From positions 1 to 57,986 of the forward strand of contig DAOMOX010000001.1 in assembly GCA_035444565.1 (NCBI GenBank): a stretch of 57,986 nucleotides of DNA, in the 5' to 3' direction. The notes beneath the pieces were generated by a model that saw nothing but the letters and a program-made list of their open reading frames with translations, was not told the origin of the DNA and ran no database searches. This document shows positions 1-39,240 of this stretch, piece by piece (the stretch's first letter is position 1; each line of letters starts with the position of its first letter). Source of the stretch: Candidatus Dojkabacteria bacterium (GTDB lineage Bacteria; Patescibacteriota; Dojkabacteria; B142; OLB20). The position numbers were made by a program, and so were the translations under genes.

Positions 1-82
1 ATTGTTGTTTGAAAATTATATCGGAGCGTAGTTCAGTTTCCGCCAGAGGCGGACCAGCCTTTGGCTGGGGCTAGAACACTAC
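1..82 (+). pseudogene. Truncated tRNA-Pro-like copy: 5' flank plus acceptor/D-arm 5' part, with a 30-nt double-hairpin insertion in the D-loop; homology ends after the D-stem
   Basis: nt 1-38 are identical to nt 83-120 (flank attgttgtttgaaaattatat + cggagcgtagttcagtt). nt 39-68 (tccgccagaggcgga + ccagcctttggctgg, two 6-bp-stem hairpins) interrupt the D-loop. nt 69-77 ggctagaac resume the tRNA sequence, then similarity stops. The window edge may cut the unit. Confidence 0.7.
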
Positions 83-103
83 ATTGTTGTTTGAAAATTA
101 TAT

Positions 104-177
104 CGGAGCGTAGTTCAGTTGGCTAGAACGCTCGCTTTGGGAGCGAGAGGTCGCTAGTTCGAGTCTAGTCGCTCCGA
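104..177 (+). tRNA. tRNA-Pro (anticodon UGG), CCA not encoded
   Basis: Manual cloverleaf, 74 nt. Acceptor cggagcg/cgctccg; D-arm gttc-agttggcta-gaac; anticodon arm ctcgc-tttggga-gcgag (anticodon TGG); variable aggtc; T-arm gctag-ttcgagt-ctagt; discriminator a. Confidence 0.92.
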
Positions 178-200
178 TATAATTTTTACAATGATAGTCT

Positions 201-446
201 ATGAGTTACTCTGTTTATGTTTTGAAGAGTAAGAACAACGGAAACCGTTACATAGGTTATACTAGTAAACCAATCACGAACAGACTAAAAGAACACAATG
301 AAGGCTCAAATCAATACACCAAAAATAATATTCCATATGAGTTGCTTTATTTCGAACAGAACTATTGCAAAGAATGTGCTACAAATAGAGAGAAGTTCCT
401 AAAGTCTGGTCAAGGTAGTAAATTGCTCGATAAAATTCAAGCGTAG
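201..446 (+). CDS. Small GIY-YIG nuclease family protein (YhbQ/UPF0213-like)
   Basis: 81-aa ORF with a GIY-YIG-type pattern: YSVYVLKS..NRYIGYT..RLKEHN..ELLYFE..REKFLKSGQG. It starts 24 nt after tRNA-Pro. Its TAG stop (444-446) lies inside the downstream tRNA-like copy. Confidence 0.8.
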   Translation: MSYSVYVLKSKNNGNRYIGYTSKPITNRLKEHNEGSNQYTKNNIPYELLYFEQNYCKECATNREKFLKSGQGSKLLDKIQA

Positions 447-577
447 TTCAGTTTCCGCCAGAGGCGGACCAGCCTATTGAGCCATAGGCACATCAGCCTT
501 TGGTTGAGGCTGGGGCTAGGACGCTCGCTTTGGGAGCGAGAGGTCGTCCCGCCTATTTATAGGCGGAATCGCTCCGA
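441..577 (+). pseudogene. Degenerate tRNA-Pro copy lacking the first 4 nt, with an expanded D-loop insertion and the T-arm replaced by a different hairpin
   Basis: gcgtagttcagtt (441-453) matches tRNA positions 5-17. The same tccgccagaggcgga/ccagcc..gctgg insertion as in copy 1 is present, now carrying a nested 34-nt insert (475-508). ggctaggac plus the anticodon arm gctcgctttgggagcgag plus aggtcg are retained (514-546). The T-arm is replaced by tcccgcctatttataggcggaa (547-568). The acceptor 3' strand tcgctccga is retained (569-577). Confidence 0.75.
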
Positions 578-652
578 TTGAGTTTTTGAACGAAGTGAAA
601 AATTACTCGATCGTGATTCTGCCGAAGCTTTAGCGAAGGCATGGCTCCGATT
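571..652 (+). repeat. 64-nt two-hairpin cassette bracketed by direct repeats of the tRNA-Pro 3' acceptor strand (gctccgatt)
   Basis: gctccgatt occurs at 571-579 and 644-652. Between them lie hairpin gagttttt..aaaaattactc (loop gaacgaagtg) and hairpin tgcc-gaagctttagcgaa-ggca (620-641). Confidence 0.7.
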
Positions 653-703
653 TAGTTTCCTATATAATGTCTTAAACTAAATCCATTATATTTTATGTGA
701 AAT

Positions 704-1063
704 ATGGAGGACGATACACTTAATTATTTTGAGGATTTATACAATCAGCATCGGGATCAATTTCTCCAGGAATGGGGTATTGAATCAGCGGGACAATTAA
801 CAGTTGGTACACTAGAATTCCTTCCTGCTGGACAACCAGTCTTCTTTGAAGGAAGAACTCGGTGCTTTGATCCTGAAACACTCAGCGTGCATAGGATACA
901 TGGATTTGGTGACTACCATGGTCAAAGTACTTCGAAGAAGGAAAGATCAGGAGATGGATTTCCTTTCTCTATAATAACTTGTGATGGTGTCCGATATTTG
1001 TGTCATCGCAAGACTTTTGTCATCATTCCTTATGTTACTACAACGACATTACCAAAATGGTAG
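704..1063 (+). CDS. Hypothetical protein (119 aa), orphan
   Basis: Uninterrupted ORF with an ATG start. I recognise no family. By eye it is more G+C-rich than neighbouring genes. It lies between two clusters of tRNA-Pro 3'-end repeats. Confidence 0.5.
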   Translation: MEDDTLNYFEDLYNQHRDQFLQEWGIESAGQLTVGTLEFLPAGQPVFFEGRTRCFDPETLSVHRIHGFGDYHGQSTSKKERSGDGFPFSIITCDGVRYLCHRKTFVIIPYVTTTTLPKW

Positions 1064-1270
1064 AAGGACCTACATGGCAATAATGAAAGAATATTAGCAT
1101 TTGAGTGACTTAATTTTTTATTGTCAATAACAAGGATTTGGTATTAAATTTAGTAGATAGTTACTGAGTATCTTGAACATAACTTACAAAACAAATTCAG
1201 TAACTTGCGGAAACTTAAACTTTGCACTTGAAGGGGCGAGGAAACAGGAGTGGAATTCGGGAATTTATAA

Positions 1271-1377
1271 CGAGTAGTTTAGTTGGCCTGTCGAAATAAT
1301 GAAGGCATGGCTCCGATTTTGTCTTTGAGTTTACGAAAAGGCACAAAATCGAGAGTGCCCGTATGGGTGCTCCGATT
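1271..1377 (+). repeat. tRNA-Pro-derived fragments and hairpin cassette (mini tRNA-like unit plus a second gctccgatt-bracketed module)
   Basis: cgagtagtttagttggcc resembles the tRNA-Pro 5' part (ggagcgtagttcagttggct). This is followed by hairpin tgtc-gaaataatgaa-ggca, then gctccgatt (1310-1318), then hairpin attttgtctttgag..ggcacaaaat, then a small hairpin gcccgtatgggt, then gctccgatt (1369-1377). Confidence 0.65.
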
Positions 1378-1408
1378 TAGTTTTTACCATAATCCACAAC
1401 ATATTATT

Positions 1409-5159: not shown

Positions 5160-6011
5160 TTATACAAATTCCGACAATATTTCCTTCAAATGCTGAAAAA
5201 TTAGCAGATGACCTGCGTCTGATTTAATTACCAATTTATACTTAGGAACTATTTTCTCGATAAAAGCCATAGTCTCCAGAGGTACAATTTTATCCTGAGC
5301 ACCATACCAAAAGGTGATTTGTTTCTTGATTGACTTTGAGTCGAAATCGATATCTTTGAGCATCCTGAGCACATCTGAGGCTGGAGCATCAGGTCCATTT
5401 ATGTATGCTTCTCTTTCACTCATATCTATGAGTTCAGGAATATCTAGGTTTTCAAATAGTTCCACATCGGAATCAGATAATCCAAATTTTTGAAGATTAA
5501 ATTTCAATTCCTTTGTCTTACCATTTGCTTTATCCACGAACCCCATATATAAATAAAGTAAGCGTGGATAGGAAAGTACCATCTCGGCTAATTTTTTCTC
5601 TGATCCTTTTCGATAAAGAAATGCTCCCGAAGTTGCACTTACCATAACTGCTTTCTTAAAACGACTAGGATATCTGTAAATACATGCAAGCGCATAGTTA
5701 GCTCCTGCAGAGATCCCAAGAATACCAAGTTTCTCAATGCCCAAAATGTCGAGGAATTCAGAAATTTCGTCCGCCCATTCTAAATAATCTCTCTTCTCTA
5801 CAGAGGTTGATTCGCCATAACCAGGTCTGTCAGGCGTAATTATTTTTAAGTTAAGCTCATTTGCGGTTTCAGCGAATTTCATAGCCTGCATCCTAGTTCC
5901 GTTCACACCATGACACATAAGTATAGGCAAACCATTTTCGTTTCCATAGACAGAGTATGAAATAGTTTTTCCATTTTCTAAATTAATTACTTCTTTTTCT
6001 TTTTGTATCAT
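5160..6011 (-). CDS. Alpha/beta-fold hydrolase
   Basis: HGVNGT oxyanion region, nucleophile elbow GISAG, C-terminal DAGHL. Confidence 0.8.
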   Translation of the reverse strand: MIQKEKEVINLENGKTISYSVYGNENGLPILMCHGVNGTRMQAMKFAETANELNLKIITPDRPGYGESTSVEKRDYLEWADEISEFLDILGIEKLGILGISAGANYALACIYRYPSRFKKAVMVSATSGAFLYRKGSEKKLAEMVLSYPRLLYLYMGFVDKANGKTKELKFNLQKFGLSDSDVELFENLDIPELIDMSEREAYINGPDAPASDVLRMLKDIDFDSKSIKKQITFWYGAQDKIVPLETMAFIEKIVPKYKLVIKSDAGHLLIFQHLKEILSEFV

Positions 6012-29615: not shown

Positions 29616-30374
29616 TTATGGTAGTAAATTCCCTCCTCTTAGATGTGGTAAAACATTTAATGCATCTTTATTACTTATCGCTGACACATTTGAACGCAAC
29701 AACTTGCTTGCTATTGCACTAATAGGTAAATCTCCAGTCATTACAGCTGTTATCATTACATATGTCAGGTAATTATTTTTTCCTCCTGTATTTTGATGCT
29801 TTAAGTTTTTACCTTTAGAGTAGTACTTTACATCCTCATTTAACGCTATTGCATCTATATATTGCAAAAAAACAATAGGAGGCATCCCATGTAATTCTGG
29901 AATTCTCTCAGAGATATATTTGACTACCTCTAAGTTTGGTTCATATCGGAAGAAAACTTTATCAGTCTCATCACGTTGTTCTTTGTGGTCTAACAAAAAA
30001 GCGGATCTAAAAAATAACACAGCTAATAATTCAACGCAGTATCTATCTGTTCGTGCGACTTCTTCTAAGTCATAAATGACATTTCCGAATGTTGCCGCTA
30101 AATTAAGATTTTCTCCATGGTGAAAGATATCGGGTCTCATATCATGTATATTTAACTGTCCTGCATAATTTGTTTGAGACTCTTTCCCAGGTTTACCTAA
30201 TTTTATTTCATATCCCTGTTCACCACTCCAAATTGTGGTATACTCTTTATTCTCAAATGTGCCAGTTGGCCAGCTAATCGCCTCCTTTATTCTATTTAAT
30301 CTTTTCTCATAAACTACACTTTGACTAGGTGGATTACCCTCTATTTTCAAAATTTCATCAAACCTGGAATTCAT
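29616..30374 (-). CDS. Hypothetical protein; candidate cognate restriction endonuclease of the adjacent C5-methyltransferase
   Basis: 252-aa ORF transcribed divergently from the methyltransferase across a 115-bp gap. I recognise no nuclease motif with confidence, so the call is by context. Confidence 0.4.
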   Translation of the reverse strand: MNSRFDEILKIEGNPPSQSVVYEKRLNRIKEAISWPTGTFENKEYTTIWSGEQGYEIKLGKPGKESQTNYAGQLNIHDMRPDIFHHGENLNLAATFGNVIYDLEEVARTDRYCVELLAVLFFRSAFLLDHKEQRDETDKVFFRYEPNLEVVKYISERIPELHGMPPIVFLQYIDAIALNEDVKYYSKGKNLKHQNTGGKNNYLTYVMITAVMTGDLPISAIASKLLRSNVSAISNKDALNVLPHLRGGNLLP

Positions 30375-30489: not shown

Positions 30490-31758
30490 ATGGAAAAAAT
30501 AAAAGTAGTGGAGCTATTTGCTGGTGTTGGAGGTTTTAGACTCGGCCTTGAGGGAACCCCTGAACAACGCAAATCATACCACGAGAACTATAATACAATA
30601 TGGTTTAATCAGTGGGAACCTGCTACAAAGACACAACACGCTCACCAGGTTTATGTTAATCGCTTTGGAAATGATGTAGTGAATTCAGAATTCACAAATA
30701 TTGATGTGGCAAATGTAATAGATAAAGTTCCTGTACATGATTTACTAGTTGGGGGATTTCCTTGCCAAGATTATTCTGTTGCACGTAATTTATCAGCATC
30801 CGCTGGTCTTGAAGGAAAAAAAGGTGTTCTGTGGTGGTCAATTTATAAAATATTAAAGAAACAAGGGAAAAAAGCACCTAAGTATCTACTACTAGAAAAT
30901 GTTGATAGACTTCTGTCCTCACCTGCCTCTCGACGAGGACGTGATTTTGCAATCATTTTATCCTCACTAAGTGAACTAGGTTATTCCGTTGAATGGAGAG
31001 TAATTAATGCTGCTGATTACGGAATGCCTCAACGCAGAAGAAGAATATTTATTATAGGTTATCGGCAGGGCTCTAACATCTTCAATAAATTAAACAGAAA
31101 AATCAATCCACTTAAATGGTTAGAAGAGGAAGGCGTTGTTCAGCAATCTTTCCCCGCAAAAGTTTTAAGCCAAATCAACATGATAGAAATTAATCCGGAC
31201 CCTGTTGTTGTATCAAACACATTTAATCTAACAAAACCTAAAAAATCCCCTTTTGCAAATTCAGGAATAATGATTAACGGCACTGCATATACGGCCATAG
31301 TTAAACCAATATACATAGGTAAAACTATAACTTTAAATGATATTATAATAAAAGATTTGAATGAAATTTCTGACGAATTTTTTATTTCAAAAACAGATTT
31401 AGATAGATGGGCCTATCTCAAAGGAGCAAAGAATGAGCCTCGTAAGGGTGCGAACGGTTACGAATTCATATACAAAGAAGGCGCTGTTGCATTTCCCGAC
31501 CCACTTGATAAACCTTCACGTACAATTATTACGAGCGAAGGAGGTTCTTCACCTTCAAGATTTAAACATGTAATACAAACACCGAAAGGGCTCCGAAGAC
31601 TCACTCCAATAGAATTGGAACGATTATGTATGTTTCCCGATAATCATACAAAAGGACATAGCGATACAAAAAGAGCATTTTTTATGGGGAATGCGCTGGT
31701 TGTAGGAGTAATCGATGGTTTGGGAAGAGCATTAATAAAAGTACACGAATCCTCTTAA
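30490..31758 (+). CDS. DNA (cytosine-5)-methyltransferase
   Basis: Motif I LFAGVGG, IV GFPCQDYS, VI LLENV, VIII QRRRRIFIIG, X GNALVVGV. A variable target-recognition region lies between VIII and IX. Confidence 0.93.
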   Translation: MEKIKVVELFAGVGGFRLGLEGTPEQRKSYHENYNTIWFNQWEPATKTQHAHQVYVNRFGNDVVNSEFTNIDVANVIDKVPVHDLLVGGFPCQDYSVARNLSASAGLEGKKGVLWWSIYKILKKQGKKAPKYLLLENVDRLLSSPASRRGRDFAIILSSLSELGYSVEWRVINAADYGMPQRRRRIFIIGYRQGSNIFNKLNRKINPLKWLEEEGVVQQSFPAKVLSQINMIEINPDPVVVSNTFNLTKPKKSPFANSGIMINGTAYTAIVKPIYIGKTITLNDIIIKDLNEISDEFFISKTDLDRWAYLKGAKNEPRKGANGYEFIYKEGAVAFPDPLDKPSRTIITSEGGSSPSRFKHVIQTPKGLRRLTPIELERLCMFPDNHTKGHSDTKRAFFMGNALVVGVIDGLGRALIKVHESS

Positions 31759-31797
31759 TGGATAATTGAAATTGTACAATTAGATTTAAGGCAATTA

Positions 31798-31950
31798 TTA
31801 GTCCCACGTAATAAAATGGAGCAGGGGAACCTATGGCTGGTCGAGCAGCCTGCCTGTCGGCAGACAGGGATTCCTCAATCAGCAGTTAGTGAGTTAGCGA
31901 ACTTTACTGCTGATTAGTCCCACGAAGCATTAGCGAAGTGGGAGAACCTA
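31798..31950. repeat. tRNA-Asn trailer cluster: two related hairpin repeats (ttagtcccacg...gga(g)aaccta) enclosing three further GC-rich hairpins
   Basis: R1 at 31798-31833 and R2 at 31914-31950 share both ends. Between them are hairpins ggctg-gtcgag-cagcc (31835-31850), cctgtc-ggca-gacagg (31853-31868) and aatcagcag-21 nt-ctgctgatt (31877-31915). Confidence 0.65.
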
Positions 31951-31961
31951 AATTTTCAAAA

Positions 31962-32033
31962 CTGGCCAGCTAGGACTCGAACCTAGAACCTATCCGTTAA
32001 CAGCGGATTGCACTACCATTGTGCTACTGGCCA
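31962..32033 (-). tRNA. tRNA-Asn (anticodon GUU), CCA not encoded
   Basis: Reverse complement folds as tggccag-ta-gcac-aatggta-gtgc-a-atccg-ctgttaa-cggat-aggtt-ctagg-ttcgagt-cctag-ctggcca-g. 72 nt. Confidence 0.92.
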
Positions 32034-32087: not shown

Positions 32088-32278
32088 CCCGTACAACTCG
32101 CGATGCTCGTTTACGGGACAAATTCGGTTAGACTCACACTTCGCTTACGCTCGTGTTCGTCAACGCCTTTGCAATTATATAGAACAAAGAGTTAGGTCCC
32201 GTACAACTCGCGATGCTCGTTTACGGGACAAATTCGGCTAGTCTCACACATCGCTTACGCTCGTGTTCGTCAACGCCT
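32088..32278. repeat. Two 81-nt direct repeats (78/81 identical) spaced 110 nt apart in the divergent tRNA-Asn/fur-like intergenic region
   Basis: 32088-32168 versus 32198-32278 differ only at 32128/32238, 32132/32242 and 32140/32250. Each starts with hairpin cccgta-18 nt-tacggg. Confidence 0.8.
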
Positions 32279-38110: not shown

Positions 38111-38289
38111 AAAGGCCCCGTTTCTCACTACGTTCGAACGGGAATAACGCTCTTTTATGTAAATTAAACGTAGGTCCCGTATAAATTCCTGCGGAATTTT
38201 ACGGGACATCAGAAAATCTGACTTCAAATTAGTTGACCTTTTACATTTTTATTAGAAAAGGCCCCGTTTCTCACTCTGTTCGAACGGGG
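38111..38289. repeat. tRNA-Lys leader cluster: two copies of aaaggccccgtttctcactNNgttcgaacggg flanking a 34-nt near-perfect hairpin
   Basis: Copies at 38111-38142 and 38258-38289 (stem ccccgtt/aacgggg, containing the palindrome cgttcgaacg). Central hairpin gtcccgta-t-aaattcc-tgc-ggaattt-tacgggac at 38174-38207. A further hairpin aaaaagtctggcttt-aacgaagtg-aaagcctagacttttt lies at 38295-38333. Confidence 0.7.
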
Positions 38290-38337
38290 CATCAAAAAGT
38301 CTGGCTTTAACGAAGTGAAAGCCTAGACTTTTTAGAT

Positions 38338-38409
38338 GGGTTGGTAGCTCAATGGTAGAGCAATGGCCTTTTAAGCCAGTGGTTGCGGGTTCGAGTCCCG
38401 CCCGACTCA
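38338..38409 (+). tRNA. tRNA-Lys (anticodon UUU), CCA not encoded
   Basis: gggttgg-ta-gctc-aatggta-gagc-a-atggc-cttttaa-gccag-tggtt-gcggg-ttcgagt-cccgc-ccgactc-a. 72 nt. Two G-U pairs in the acceptor stem. Confidence 0.9.
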
Positions 38410-38648
38410 TATTTTGCCTTTGAGCAAAGCGAAAAGTTGCAAAATAAAGTCTGCCGAAATTTTAATGTAGGCATGACTCATATGATTTATCTCTGATATT
38501 GTTACAGAGGCGGGACGAGAAGTTTATCCCGTAAATCGAAAGAAGTGAGATTGTACGGGAAGTCGCGCCCGACTCATATTTTGCCTTTGAGTGAAGCGGA
38601 AAGTTGCAAAATAAAGTCTGCCGAAATGTAATGAAGGCATGACTCATA
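38400..38648 (+). repeat. Duplicated 82-83-nt block starting inside the tRNA-Lys 3' end; four copies of gactcata bracket hairpin cassettes and a tRNA-like remnant
   Basis: Block 38400-38482 versus block 38567-38648. They share gcccgactcatattttgcctttgag, ttgcaaaataaagtctgccgaaat and ggcatgactcata. gactcata occurs at 38404, 38475, 38571 and 38641. The segment 38491-38566 carries an anticodon-arm-like hairpin ctctg-atattgtta-cagag, then gcggg, then hairpin cccgta-20 nt-tacggg, then gcgcccgactca. Confidence 0.75.
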
Positions 38649-38791
38649 TTTTATAGAAAATGATATTTCCCCCAAAAGTATGTATACAAGATAATTCTCA
38701 GTTTATTTACTTTTAACTTCCCCGTAGTATAATCCATTAATATAAGGGCTACTTATCCTGGGCTACATATTTATTCTTTTATATTCATAAA

Positions 38792-39190
38792 ATGGATGAA
38801 CTATTGGTAAGCAAAGAAACGCAGAACAGTCTAAGGATATATGTATTTGAAGATGATCCTGGAGTTATTAGCGATTTAAGATTTAATGTTGAAAATTTCT
38901 GGGGTCATAAAATAGTAGGTGTCGCATCTACAATAGAAAAGGCAAAATTTGTTATTCCTTCACTTGGTAACTTGGGAGTACAAGCTGCTATTATTGATGC
39001 GAATTTAAGTGGACTTAAACACACAGGACATGGAACACAAATTTGTAAATTAATCAAAGAACAGCATCCAAACATTAATTTGGTTGGCTATGGGGCGGAA
39101 GCATTTTCAGGAGCAGATTACTGGGTAGGCAAGGCATCTGGTCCTAAGGTGTTGGAAGATACACTTTCAAAAATCTCAAGTAGTATTTAG
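38792..39190 (+). CDS. Stand-alone response-regulator receiver (CheY-like) domain protein
   Basis: IYVFEDD (acidic pair), AAIIDANL (phospho-Asp position), VGKAS (Lys). No output domain and no kinase nearby. Confidence 0.55.
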   Translation: MDELLVSKETQNSLRIYVFEDDPGVISDLRFNVENFWGHKIVGVASTIEKAKFVIPSLGNLGVQAAIIDANLSGLKHTGHGTQICKLIKEQHPNINLVGYGAEAFSGADYWVGKASGPKVLEDTLSKISSSI

Positions 39191-39240
39191 CATCATTGTA
39201 TTATATTCTGTTATAATCTCTAGAAATTGAAATTATATTA

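Follow-up and report, generated by a model that had tools for sequence, protein, structure and literature searches.

Short-range arrays of tRNA ends and hairpins at the tRNA genes of a Dojkabacteria-like bacterium

Introduction

How does a tRNA gene come to be followed by several copies of its own 3' end, interleaved with hairpins and with a piece that resembles a dead tRNA? This question is raised by the tRNA-Lys(UUU) gene of contig DAOMOX010000001.1, of which positions 1 to 57,986 were analysed (this whole stretch is referred to here as the window). The array behind this gene reads T-C-psi-C, in a shorthand in which T denotes the tRNA, C a cassette of 62 or 63 nucleotides (nt) and psi a pseudo-tRNA module. 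The array is real, and none of the curated RNA families or mobile-element classes tested explains it; we would class it as a new short-range variant of duplication and recombination at tRNA flanks. The reading that we favour, to which we give an even chance of being correct, is that the Lys array was built in cis, by partial duplication of the tRNA unit, insertion of hairpins into the loops of dead copies, and reshuffling between short terminal repeats.

The repeat array 3' of tRNA-Lys

The sequence GACTCATAT is present in exactly four copies in the 58-kb window, all of them within 38404-38649. The string GACTCATA(T) starts at 38404, 38475, 38571 and 38641 and nowhere else on either strand, with a chance expectation of approximately 0.39 per strand, and the gaps separating the four terminal-repeat copies are 63, 88 and 62 nt. 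Positions 38394-38483 and 38561-38649 form a direct repeat with a spacing of 167 nt, in which a 90-nt block made up of the tRNA-Lys 3' end and a two-hairpin cassette is identical at 83 of 90 positions (92%). All but one of the seven differences are apical, falling in one or other of the two hairpins; the exception is a change from C to G in the 3' strand of the T-stem. A first-pass annotation of this DNA had already placed gactcata four times around cassettes of 63 and 62 nt, located the repeated block with its spacing of 167 nt and noted that its differences are concentrated in the hairpin loops, and we found all of this as described. The repeat is real, although its extent and identity needed correction: it begins 6 nt further into the T-loop than annotated, and the block as first delimited agrees at 78 of 84 positions (93%, not about 88%).

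From 5' to 3', and all on the plus strand, the array comprises a leader hairpin, tRNA-Lys, cassette A, the 96-nt pseudo-tRNA module and cassette B. The leader hairpin (GTCTGGCTTT-AACGAAGTGA-AAGCCTAGAC, 38300-38329, recognised from sequence and RNA fold) is situated 9 nt 5' of tRNA-Lys, and its outer stem is like that of cassette hairpin 2 while its apex is like that of hairpin 1. The tRNA-Lys(UUU) gene (38338-38409; ARAGORN, and Rfam RF00005 at 71.4 bits) is functional and does not encode CCA. The first terminal-repeat copy, AGTCCCGCCCGACTCATAT, begins in the T-loop and runs 3 nt beyond the discriminator (38394-38412). Cassette A holds hairpin 1 (ATTTTGC-CTTT-GA-GC-AAA-GC-GA-AAAG-tt-GCAAAAT, 38411-38445, sequence and fold) and hairpin 2 (GTCTGCC-GAA-AT-TTTA-AT-GTA-GGCAtGAC, 38449-38477, fold), the pairing of which reaches into the acceptor copy on its 3' side, that is, terminal-repeat copy 2 (GACTCATAT, 38475-38483). 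Cassette B repeats this layout with hairpin 1 (38578-38612), hairpin 2 (CTGCC-GAA-AT-GTA-AT-GAA-GGCA, 38616-38643) and terminal-repeat copy 4 (GACTCATAT, 38641-38649).

Between the cassettes, the pseudo-tRNA-Lys module (38484-38579) opens with a decayed 5' part containing a ctctg/cagag hairpin (38491-38509), followed by GCGGG, the 5' strand of the T-stem, with ACGAGAAGTTTAT (38510-38527), a 32-nt inner hairpin cccgta...tacggg (38528-38559) and a 3' part of AAGT, CGCGC and CCGACTCATAT, with terminal-repeat copy 3 at 38561-38579. With one mismatch, the final 19 nt of the module repeat the tRNA stretch that starts in the T-loop and stops 3 nt beyond the discriminator. The inner hairpin had been reported in the first-pass annotation, as had the interpretation of this middle piece as a tRNA remnant with an expanded T-arm; the piece derives from tRNA-Lys and is conserved across lineages (orthologues in L236, L098, L101 and L237). 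The remnant drew no call as a cloverleaf tRNA from ARAGORN or Rfam RF00005, even at E<=10, with only 38338-38409 being called.

The region folds better than shuffled sequences (z = -4.7, RNA fold). In an Rfam search of the region only the tRNA passes, the next matches scoring 13-28 bits, far under the gathering threshold; a weak match to YrlA (18 bits against a threshold of 69) arises from the tRNA part and was rejected. Tandem Repeats Finder did not report the arrays. A scan for intrinsic terminators in the Lys region flags just T-stem/acceptor sequence, hairpins 1 and 2 having no T tail, and terminator and promoter scans gave no support for either in the array. A minus-strand open reading frame (ORF) of 61 amino acids (aa) at 38462-38647 lies entirely inside the repeats and is taken as spurious. 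Phage origin was also considered and rejected, as phage records match the tRNA alone and the neighbours are housekeeping genes.

Independent assemblies and related tRNA-Lys loci

Four other assemblies contain an identical downstream ORF, and the array is base-for-base identical in three of them and differs by one single-nucleotide polymorphism in the fourth. Because these four show the same array, which makes five assemblies including the window, collapse or expansion during assembly is excluded as its source. Seven further tRNA-Lys loci were gathered through homologues of the adjacent YraN protein (91-78% identity). Alongside the T-C-psi-C of the window, L001, from the same species, has 5' fragment-T-C-psi-C; L236 (YraN 91%) has T-psi-psi'(truncated) without a cassette; L097 (87%) has T-C; L098, L237 and L238 (each 83%) have 5' fragment-T-psi-C, T-psi and T-C(partial), respectively; and L101 (78%) has T-psi-psi'-C. 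From these arrangements it follows that psi and cassette modules are old, independent of each other and variably lost, and a cassette between T and psi is the sole arrangement peculiar to the window species. At the same position L236 has an empty site, in which CCCGACTCATAT is joined directly to gatttatctctg. The first-pass annotation had proposed a search for strain-level insertion polymorphism, and clean empty sites are present in close relatives, namely at Lys in L236 and at Pro in L089/L090.

The modules differ in how they have been conserved. The acceptor copy that follows the cassette is decayed in other lineages (GACTCGTA, GACCTATAT, GACTAATA, TACATAT) and behaves like an unselected scar. 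Cassette hairpin 1 retains its structure through compensatory changes, ATTTTGC/GCAAAAT becoming GTTTTGC/GCAAAAC or ATTTTGT/ACAAAAT. The pseudo-tRNA-Lys has two subtypes, with GGACGAGAAG invariant in all six aligned Lys-locus copies, and in L237 the inner hairpin of the orthologous remnant is replaced by another member of the hairpin family. Leader and trailer hairpins resemble each other within each lineage.

Two comparisons bear on how such arrays change. Relative to the window, L001 has 131 extra nt upstream and is 98% identical downstream; its order is leaderA (the leader hairpin of the window), a 5' fragment (GGGTTGGTAGCTCAAT) cut in the D-loop, hairpins, leaderB and the tRNA, whereas in the window leaderA is followed directly by the tRNA. 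Judged against L001, the window is the very product expected from recombination between fragment and gene, so that recombination is here directly visible. Similarly, the T-C arrangement of L097 and L238 is what would remain after T and psi had recombined through their 19-nt repeats.

A hairpin family with a common apex

The window has three tRNA genes according to ARAGORN and Rfam (Pro 104-177, Asn 31962-32033 on the minus strand, and Lys), and hairpins of one design are found at all three loci. Each begins with an outer stem whose sequence is free and continues with GA(A), a 2-bp mini-stem (variants GC/GC, AC/GT and AT/AT), a loop of 3-4 nt and GA(A) before the outer stem closes. In an alignment of 15 copies the proportion of paired cells is 88.9%, compared with 64% in shuffles, and 26 changes are double-sided; the alignment was registered by hand, so that these controls are optimistic. 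Apex positions G5, A6, G14 and A15 are invariant or nearly so. A strict apex motif gave 15 matches in the window against 4.6 in shuffles, every match with a G-C mini-stem being at a tRNA locus. The patterns TGCCGAA..GGCA (3 found, 0.05 expected) and CCCGT..ACGGG (6 found, 0.11 expected) are also all at tRNA loci, and hairpins of the family are confined to these loci in the window. We conclude that they are selected structures, defined by outer stem, tandem G.A, 2-bp mini-stem and 3-4-nt loop, and we infer that the tRNA precursor may depend on them for processing, stability or termination, or that in DNA they may be sites bound by protein. Within dead tRNA copies, the hairpins occupy the T-loop (Lys), the D-loop and T-arm (Pro) and the anticodon loop (another contig). 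Upstream of tRNA-Lys, the interval 38111-38288 contains further members, two in antisense (38117-38142 and 38263-38288) and one of the CCCGTA...TACGGG type (38176-38205).

The tRNA-Pro and tRNA-Asn loci

The tRNA-Pro locus (1-1385, plus strand) has the same architecture as Lys on a larger scale. A tRNA-Pro 5' fragment, consisting of leader, 18 nt and two D-loop hairpins (1-82), precedes the gene (104-177), after which come an ORF of 80 aa with a GIY-YIG domain (204-446; PF01541, E = 1.9e-12), a pseudo-tRNA-Pro (440-578) and a cassette (579-643). In the pseudo-tRNA the anticodon arm is perfect, the D-loop contains hairpins and the T-arm has given way to another hairpin. Beyond it there are four more units, each terminated by GCTCCGAT, one of which holds the orphan ORF119 (704-1063). 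The first-pass annotation had drawn a parallel between the Pro and Lys loci that turns out to be stronger than claimed, with five copies of the tRNA-Pro 3' end (171, 571, 644, 1310 and 1369).

Positions 588-1368 are an insertion relative to the sister lineage L089/L090 (flanks 97.8% identical), in which the Pro cassette is absent and the empty site reads cgctccgat joined to ttagttt. tRNA-Pro 5' fragments bear each lineage's own leader, in keeping with a local duplication of recent date; those of L096, which are tandem, do so too and show a compensatory hairpin change from tccgcc/ggcgga to tcggcc/ggccga. In the 620-kb NCBI contig DAOMRO010000001.1 (GCA_035445885.1) of the same species, at least three tandem tRNA-Pro 5' fragments lie upstream of the point where the window starts, with an N gap between. 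The window itself opens (1-82) inside a tandem array of such fragments, and at that place a stretch of N interrupts the NCBI assembly of this species (L240, 990-1400). Such arrays break or confuse assemblies. Upstream of the Pro array, a 247-aa orphan ORF is present in the window species (L247, 7964-8707), and in L089 a large DUF2341 protein directly precedes the array at that place.

At tRNA-Asn, two 81-nt repeats with 110-nt spacing, 96% identity and two family hairpins each are located upstream of the gene (32088-32278, minus strand). Its trailer (31790-31960) contains two taggttc...gtgggactaat units without an acceptor copy, which resemble remnants of a variable loop plus a replaced T-arm. 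Beyond the trailer there are a C-5 cytosine DNA methylase (Dcm, 30490-31758) and an unannotated 252-aa ORF (29616-30374), which together may be a restriction-modification islet at the tRNA flank.

Related modules in metagenome contigs

A metagenome scan with the hairpin-1 loop pattern returned at least 120 loci, with no Dojkabacteria Lys loci among the matches listed. Among those listed, a TTTT-GA-GC-GAA-GC-GA-AAAA hairpin directly abuts a tRNA gene at approximately 20 loci, mostly a few nt from the tRNA 3' end and in either orientation. An AAAATTT-GA-GC-GAA-GC-GA-AAATTTT hairpin was seen abutting tRNA genes of the unrelated contigs L117, L160, L164, L166, L171, L175, L187, L198, L202, L211, L214 and others, mostly 0-5 nt from the 3' end, again in either orientation, and often with low-complexity sequence of the tacaaattac type upstream. 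The 64 tRNAs in the matches listed include five (Arg, Leu, Val, Thr and Ser) with a copy of their own 3' end (16-22 nt) 60-180 nt downstream, and for one of these a 5' copy lies upstream as well; wrong-direction matches reflect only T-loop similarity of neighbouring tRNAs. L214 is a clean tandem duplication of the 3' part of tRNA-Thr with its trailer. The same contig shows (about 5880-6000, oriented) a partial tRNA-Thr copy with a 31-nt hairpin, cctgtccgccgtagttttaacgaaggtgga, in the anticodon loop, and then a duplicate 26-nt trailer.

The most informative case comes from L211, an unrelated contig of 37% G+C, in which tRNA-Val is followed by GGATCCA-aa-GGGACGAGAAGTTTAT-CC..GG-AGG-AAGT-CCTCT-TGGGTCC-AC. 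The ACGAGAAGTTTAT and AAGT loops are those of the Lys remnant, while the acceptor strands and T-stem are those of the local tRNA-Val, and the module folds as a minihelix-like rod of acceptor stem and extended T-arm. A viral-contig scan for the GGGACGAGAAG core produced only chance matches in coding sequence; a corresponding scan with the cassette gave mostly the same, together with one hairpin of the same apex (L102/L114) and one match beside tRNA-Cys (L113).

Of the 17 matches to a profile of the GIY-YIG ORF that had a tRNA called on the locus, 16 place the homologue at a distance of 20-134 nt from a tRNA gene. These ORFs encode approximately 80-105 aa with the catalytic domain only (window 204-446, L094 2501-2755, L119, L178, L208, L227 and L232), and their tRNA neighbours are Pro, Arg/Ala and Gln, the ORF being downstream and in the same orientation where the layout was examined. 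The 3' end of the L094 ORF crosses a hairpin, tccgccagaggcgga, that is the hairpin in the D-loop of the pseudo-tRNA-Pro of the window. No pseudo-tRNAs were found 3' of the GIY-YIG genes at tRNA-Gln loci, and no GIY-YIG ORF was found at the Lys locus in any of the eight lineages. Elsewhere, in a tRNA cluster of L095, tRNA-Cys is accompanied by an ORF (2101-2883) that matches LAGLIDADG faintly and is absent from the otherwise collinear L094. The element gagcccggagggcgaacgggtTTTGAGCGAAGCGAAAAACATAACTTGC, which could belong to a larger structured RNA or an intron, recurs in MWW-prefixed contigs (L123, L132, L143, L161, L184, L199, L212, L217, L220 and, twice, L222).

Genomic setting

Because the RNase HII of the window has its single close match among species-representative genomes in a Candidatus Dojkabacteria metagenome-assembled genome (86% identity, a contig-end fragment without the Lys locus), the source organism is treated as a putative Dojkabacteria-like member of the Candidate Phyla Radiation (CPR/Patescibacteria). 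The window is bacterial chromosome with a G+C content of 35%. Genes for RecX, L19, RNase HII and YraN lie upstream of the Lys array and those for DsbB, an M20 peptidase and GatB downstream, with genes for V/A-type ATPase subunits, SHMT, RecJ and transporters elsewhere. Directly 3' of the array there is a lineage-specific segment (38650-39228, plus strand) with the orphan ORF132 (38792-39190); it is missing in L097 and L098, in which the DsbB gene directly follows the array. A search for ORF132 homologues recovered nothing beyond ORF132 itself. We also considered whether ORF119 and ORF132 form a common cargo family and rejected this: they have no mutual similarity and no Pfam, PHROG or NCBIfam function, the sole match in these searches being a faint one to a receiver domain.

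Origin of the array

How might the array have been assembled? In the cis reading, the tRNA gene, along with its leader and trailer hairpins, would first have undergone partial tandem duplication, and the copies so produced, being redundant, would then have decayed. Hairpins specific to tRNA flanks would next have entered the loops of the dead copies, a pattern that is observed and for which a mechanism can only be proposed. Recombination between short direct repeats, in the form of the surviving 5' and 3' termini of the tRNA, would finally have added, deleted and reordered modules to give T-C-psi-C, a third step that comparison of strains and lineages shows. Cassette hairpin 1 would correspond to the trailer hairpin of the tRNA, and hairpin 2 to the leader hairpin of a lost downstream copy of which GACTCATAT is the sole residue. 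Copying from the local tRNA would explain why the terminal repeats match it, and gene conversion may have held them similar. A cis origin is favoured because tandem duplication with trailers, recombination between partial copy and gene, and differential loss have each been seen. The first-pass annotation had compared the cassettes, flanked by the acceptor end, to a target duplication; bounds formed by the local terminus hold at both Lys and Pro, but the repeats measure 8-9, 15, 17 and 19 nt and thus fit no single stagger. Given this variation in length, its further proposal of a mechanism that reads the resident tRNA end is not sustained, as a trans-acting machine is not required and copying from the adjacent gene is simpler.

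Several observations weigh against this reading. The tRNA-Val module of L211, with the same core and Val-matched stems, is unexplained by local copying alone, and independent local decay would not be expected to yield the same loops twice, at Lys and at Val. The Pro and Lys cassettes of this genome share TCTGCCGAA...AGGCATG, a stem that is lost in Lys orthologues of other lineages, and the Pro cassette is missing in the sister lineage, i.e., it arrived recently at tRNA-Pro; these findings point to transfer between loci with different termini. In addition, GGACGAGAAG is invariant amid variable neighbouring bases, which looks like constraint rather than decay, and the hand-registered covariation alignment is a caveat here too. 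The loop core common to Lys and Val, like the arrival of the Pro cassette, implies either that short non-tRNA sequence has moved between tRNA loci or that a tRNA-mimic RNA is under selection.

Movement would be provided if the cassette and the pseudo-tRNA core were non-autonomous miniature mobile elements that enter tRNA 3' ends and loops and duplicate their target, with an enzyme acting in trans and the small GIY-YIG nucleases beside tRNA genes as a candidate source of breaks; we regard this as unlikely. It would account for empty and filled sites with flanking repeats of 9 nt (Lys) and 8-9 nt (Pro) that differ in sequence, for the hairpin-2 stem and hairpin-1 apex common to the cassettes of two loci, for the GGGACGAGAAGTTTAT core at tRNA-Lys and tRNA-Val with locally matched ends, for the swapped inner hairpin of L237 and for the proximity of GIY-YIG ORFs to tRNA genes. 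However, there are no terminal inverted repeats, the cassette ends sharing at most the 5-nt TGCCT (Lys) or nothing (Pro), and the flanking repeats vary in length between 8 and 19 nt, the cassette having 8-9 nt at two loci and other units 15-19 nt. Only three cassette copies are seen in 58 kb, all at tRNA ends and about 60% alike between loci; no transposase turned up in the Pfam-checked ORFs of the window; a GIY-YIG gene is absent from the Lys locus in each of the eight lineages and the tRNA-Gln/GIY-YIG loci have no pseudo-tRNA; and recombination between repeats or allelic replacement could also give every polymorphism. Integration on a larger scale is rather improbable in our estimation. Here the array would be att-site scars, left by repeated integrations at the tRNA from T-loop to 3' end that displaced the old 3' end downstream, with the islands since deleted to stubs. 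Integration-derived partial tRNA genes are a general phenomenon (PMC9897764), the identity blocks of 19 nt (Lys) and 15 nt (Pro) begin in the T-loop or acceptor like att cores, direct repeats of the tRNA 3' segment bound inserted DNA (19 and 9 nt at Lys, 8-15 nt at Pro), and lineage-specific orphan or accessory genes adjoin the arrays (ORF119, ORF132 and the Dcm methylase beside tRNA-Asn). Yet no integrase is present in any locus and no kilobase-scale element lies between the repeats, the units being 62-88 nt; spacings in the independent examples are uniformly 60-180 nt and not kilobases, 5' fragments with leaders occur upstream, and the L211 module has the local 5' acceptor strand on the supposed element side as well. 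Neither integrase nor transposase was found in the approximately 50 of about 75 window ORFs of at least 90 aa that were checked against Pfam, nor any recombinase domain in precomputed Pfam lists for genes of the relatives' Lys and Pro loci.

Selection could instead have acted on the pseudo-tRNA module as a functional small RNA, a minihelix-like acceptor/T-arm mimic with loops ACGAGAAGUUUAU and AAGU that is co-transcribed with the tRNA and serves as decoy or regulator of a tRNA-end enzyme, which we consider rather improbable. The invariance of GGACGAGAAG in the six aligned Lys-locus copies and its presence at tRNA-Val with stems that follow the local tRNA are in keeping with such a role, as are the rod-like fold of the L211 module, the restriction of insertions to loops and never stems of tRNA-like copies, and folding of the region above shuffles. 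On the other hand, an intact 5' acceptor strand is missing from the Lys modules, the T-stem of the window copy contains a mismatch, L097 and L238 do without the module, only two tRNA identities are known and Rfam gave no match. A broader scenario, which we hold to be a tentative and minor possibility, is a hitherto undescribed CPR-type tRNA-centred system, in which short modules would combine constant loops (GGACGAGAAG..., AAGU and the GA/mini-stem/GA apex) with stems matched to the neighbouring tRNA. The modules would be either co-transcribed functional mimics or a new class of miniature elements that enter tRNA termini and loops and copy the end they target, possibly driven by the GIY-YIG nucleases of about 80 aa.

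Comparison with known systems

Partial tRNA genes next to intact ones have classically been attributed to the integration of mobile elements (PMC9897764), and that paper cites Reiter 1989 and Williams 2002 for partial tRNA genes left as attL/attR by integrative elements. Like such scars, the arrays have direct repeats of a 3' segment downstream of an intact gene, variable accessory genes beyond, and possibly a tandem arrangement; unlike them, they have 60-170-nt units, no integrase, 5' fragments upstream, conserved hairpins between the repeats and, in one module, the local 5' acceptor strand. Phage T4 provides another point of comparison in SegB, a free-standing GIY-YIG homing endonuclease in phage tRNA clusters (PMC2330249). 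In both cases a small GIY-YIG gene adjoins tRNA genes (here Pro and, on other contigs, Arg/Ala and Gln), but here the genomes are cellular (CPR), the predicted proteins comprise only a catalytic domain of about 80 aa, no presence/absence polymorphism was seen and none is found at Lys. A similar mixture applies to the hairpin apex. The oligonucleotide d(GCGAAGC) is a hyperstable mini-hairpin (PMC13037366), and several apices are exactly GCGAAGC or GC-NNN-GC, although here tandem G.A pairs and a longer stem enclose the motif, and its variants include AC-GAA-GT and AT-GTA-AT.

Other classes of short repeats combine hairpins with characteristic enzymes. Repetitive extragenic palindromic (REP) sequences and bacterial interspersed mosaic elements (BIME) with their REP-associated tyrosine transposases (RAYT), Rickettsia palindromic elements and miniature inverted-repeat transposable elements (MITE) are short hairpin repeats that occur in both orientations at permissive sites and nested in other structures. 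The hairpins described here are likewise short, found in both orientations, at permissive sites and nested, but they have a conserved apex with free stems (the reverse of REP), no terminal inverted repeats, RAYT or transposase, and a strict association with tRNA genes. Integrons carry cassette arrays with attC hairpins, and casposons insert at tRNA 3' ends with duplications of 14-15 bp. The present units also end in a hairpin plus a short repeated core and are anchored at a tRNA 3' end, and some include an ORF (ORF119 with a hairpin-2-like element and core). In contrast to these systems, there is no IntI, Cas1, GTTRRRY core or terminal inverted repeat, and the core is locus-specific, being the tRNA end itself: unit boundaries are GACTCATAT at Lys or GCTCCGAT at Pro, and neither IntI nor an attC with GTTRRRY, which define an integron, was found. 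A literature search found no account of such tRNA-end/hairpin arrays in CPR bacteria.

Significance

tRNA genes are known hot spots of recombination and integration, and the known scars are kilobase islands between att repeats. The genome described here, a reduced one, has dense, short-range arrays of its own tRNA ends interleaved with a structurally conserved hairpin family of tRNA flanks. Should the arrays be duplication debris only, they illustrate the evolution of tRNA flanks and the reason for assembly breaks at such places. Mobile or functional modules, if that is what they prove to be, would represent a new tRNA-targeting element or a new family of tRNA-mimic RNAs in the Candidate Phyla Radiation.

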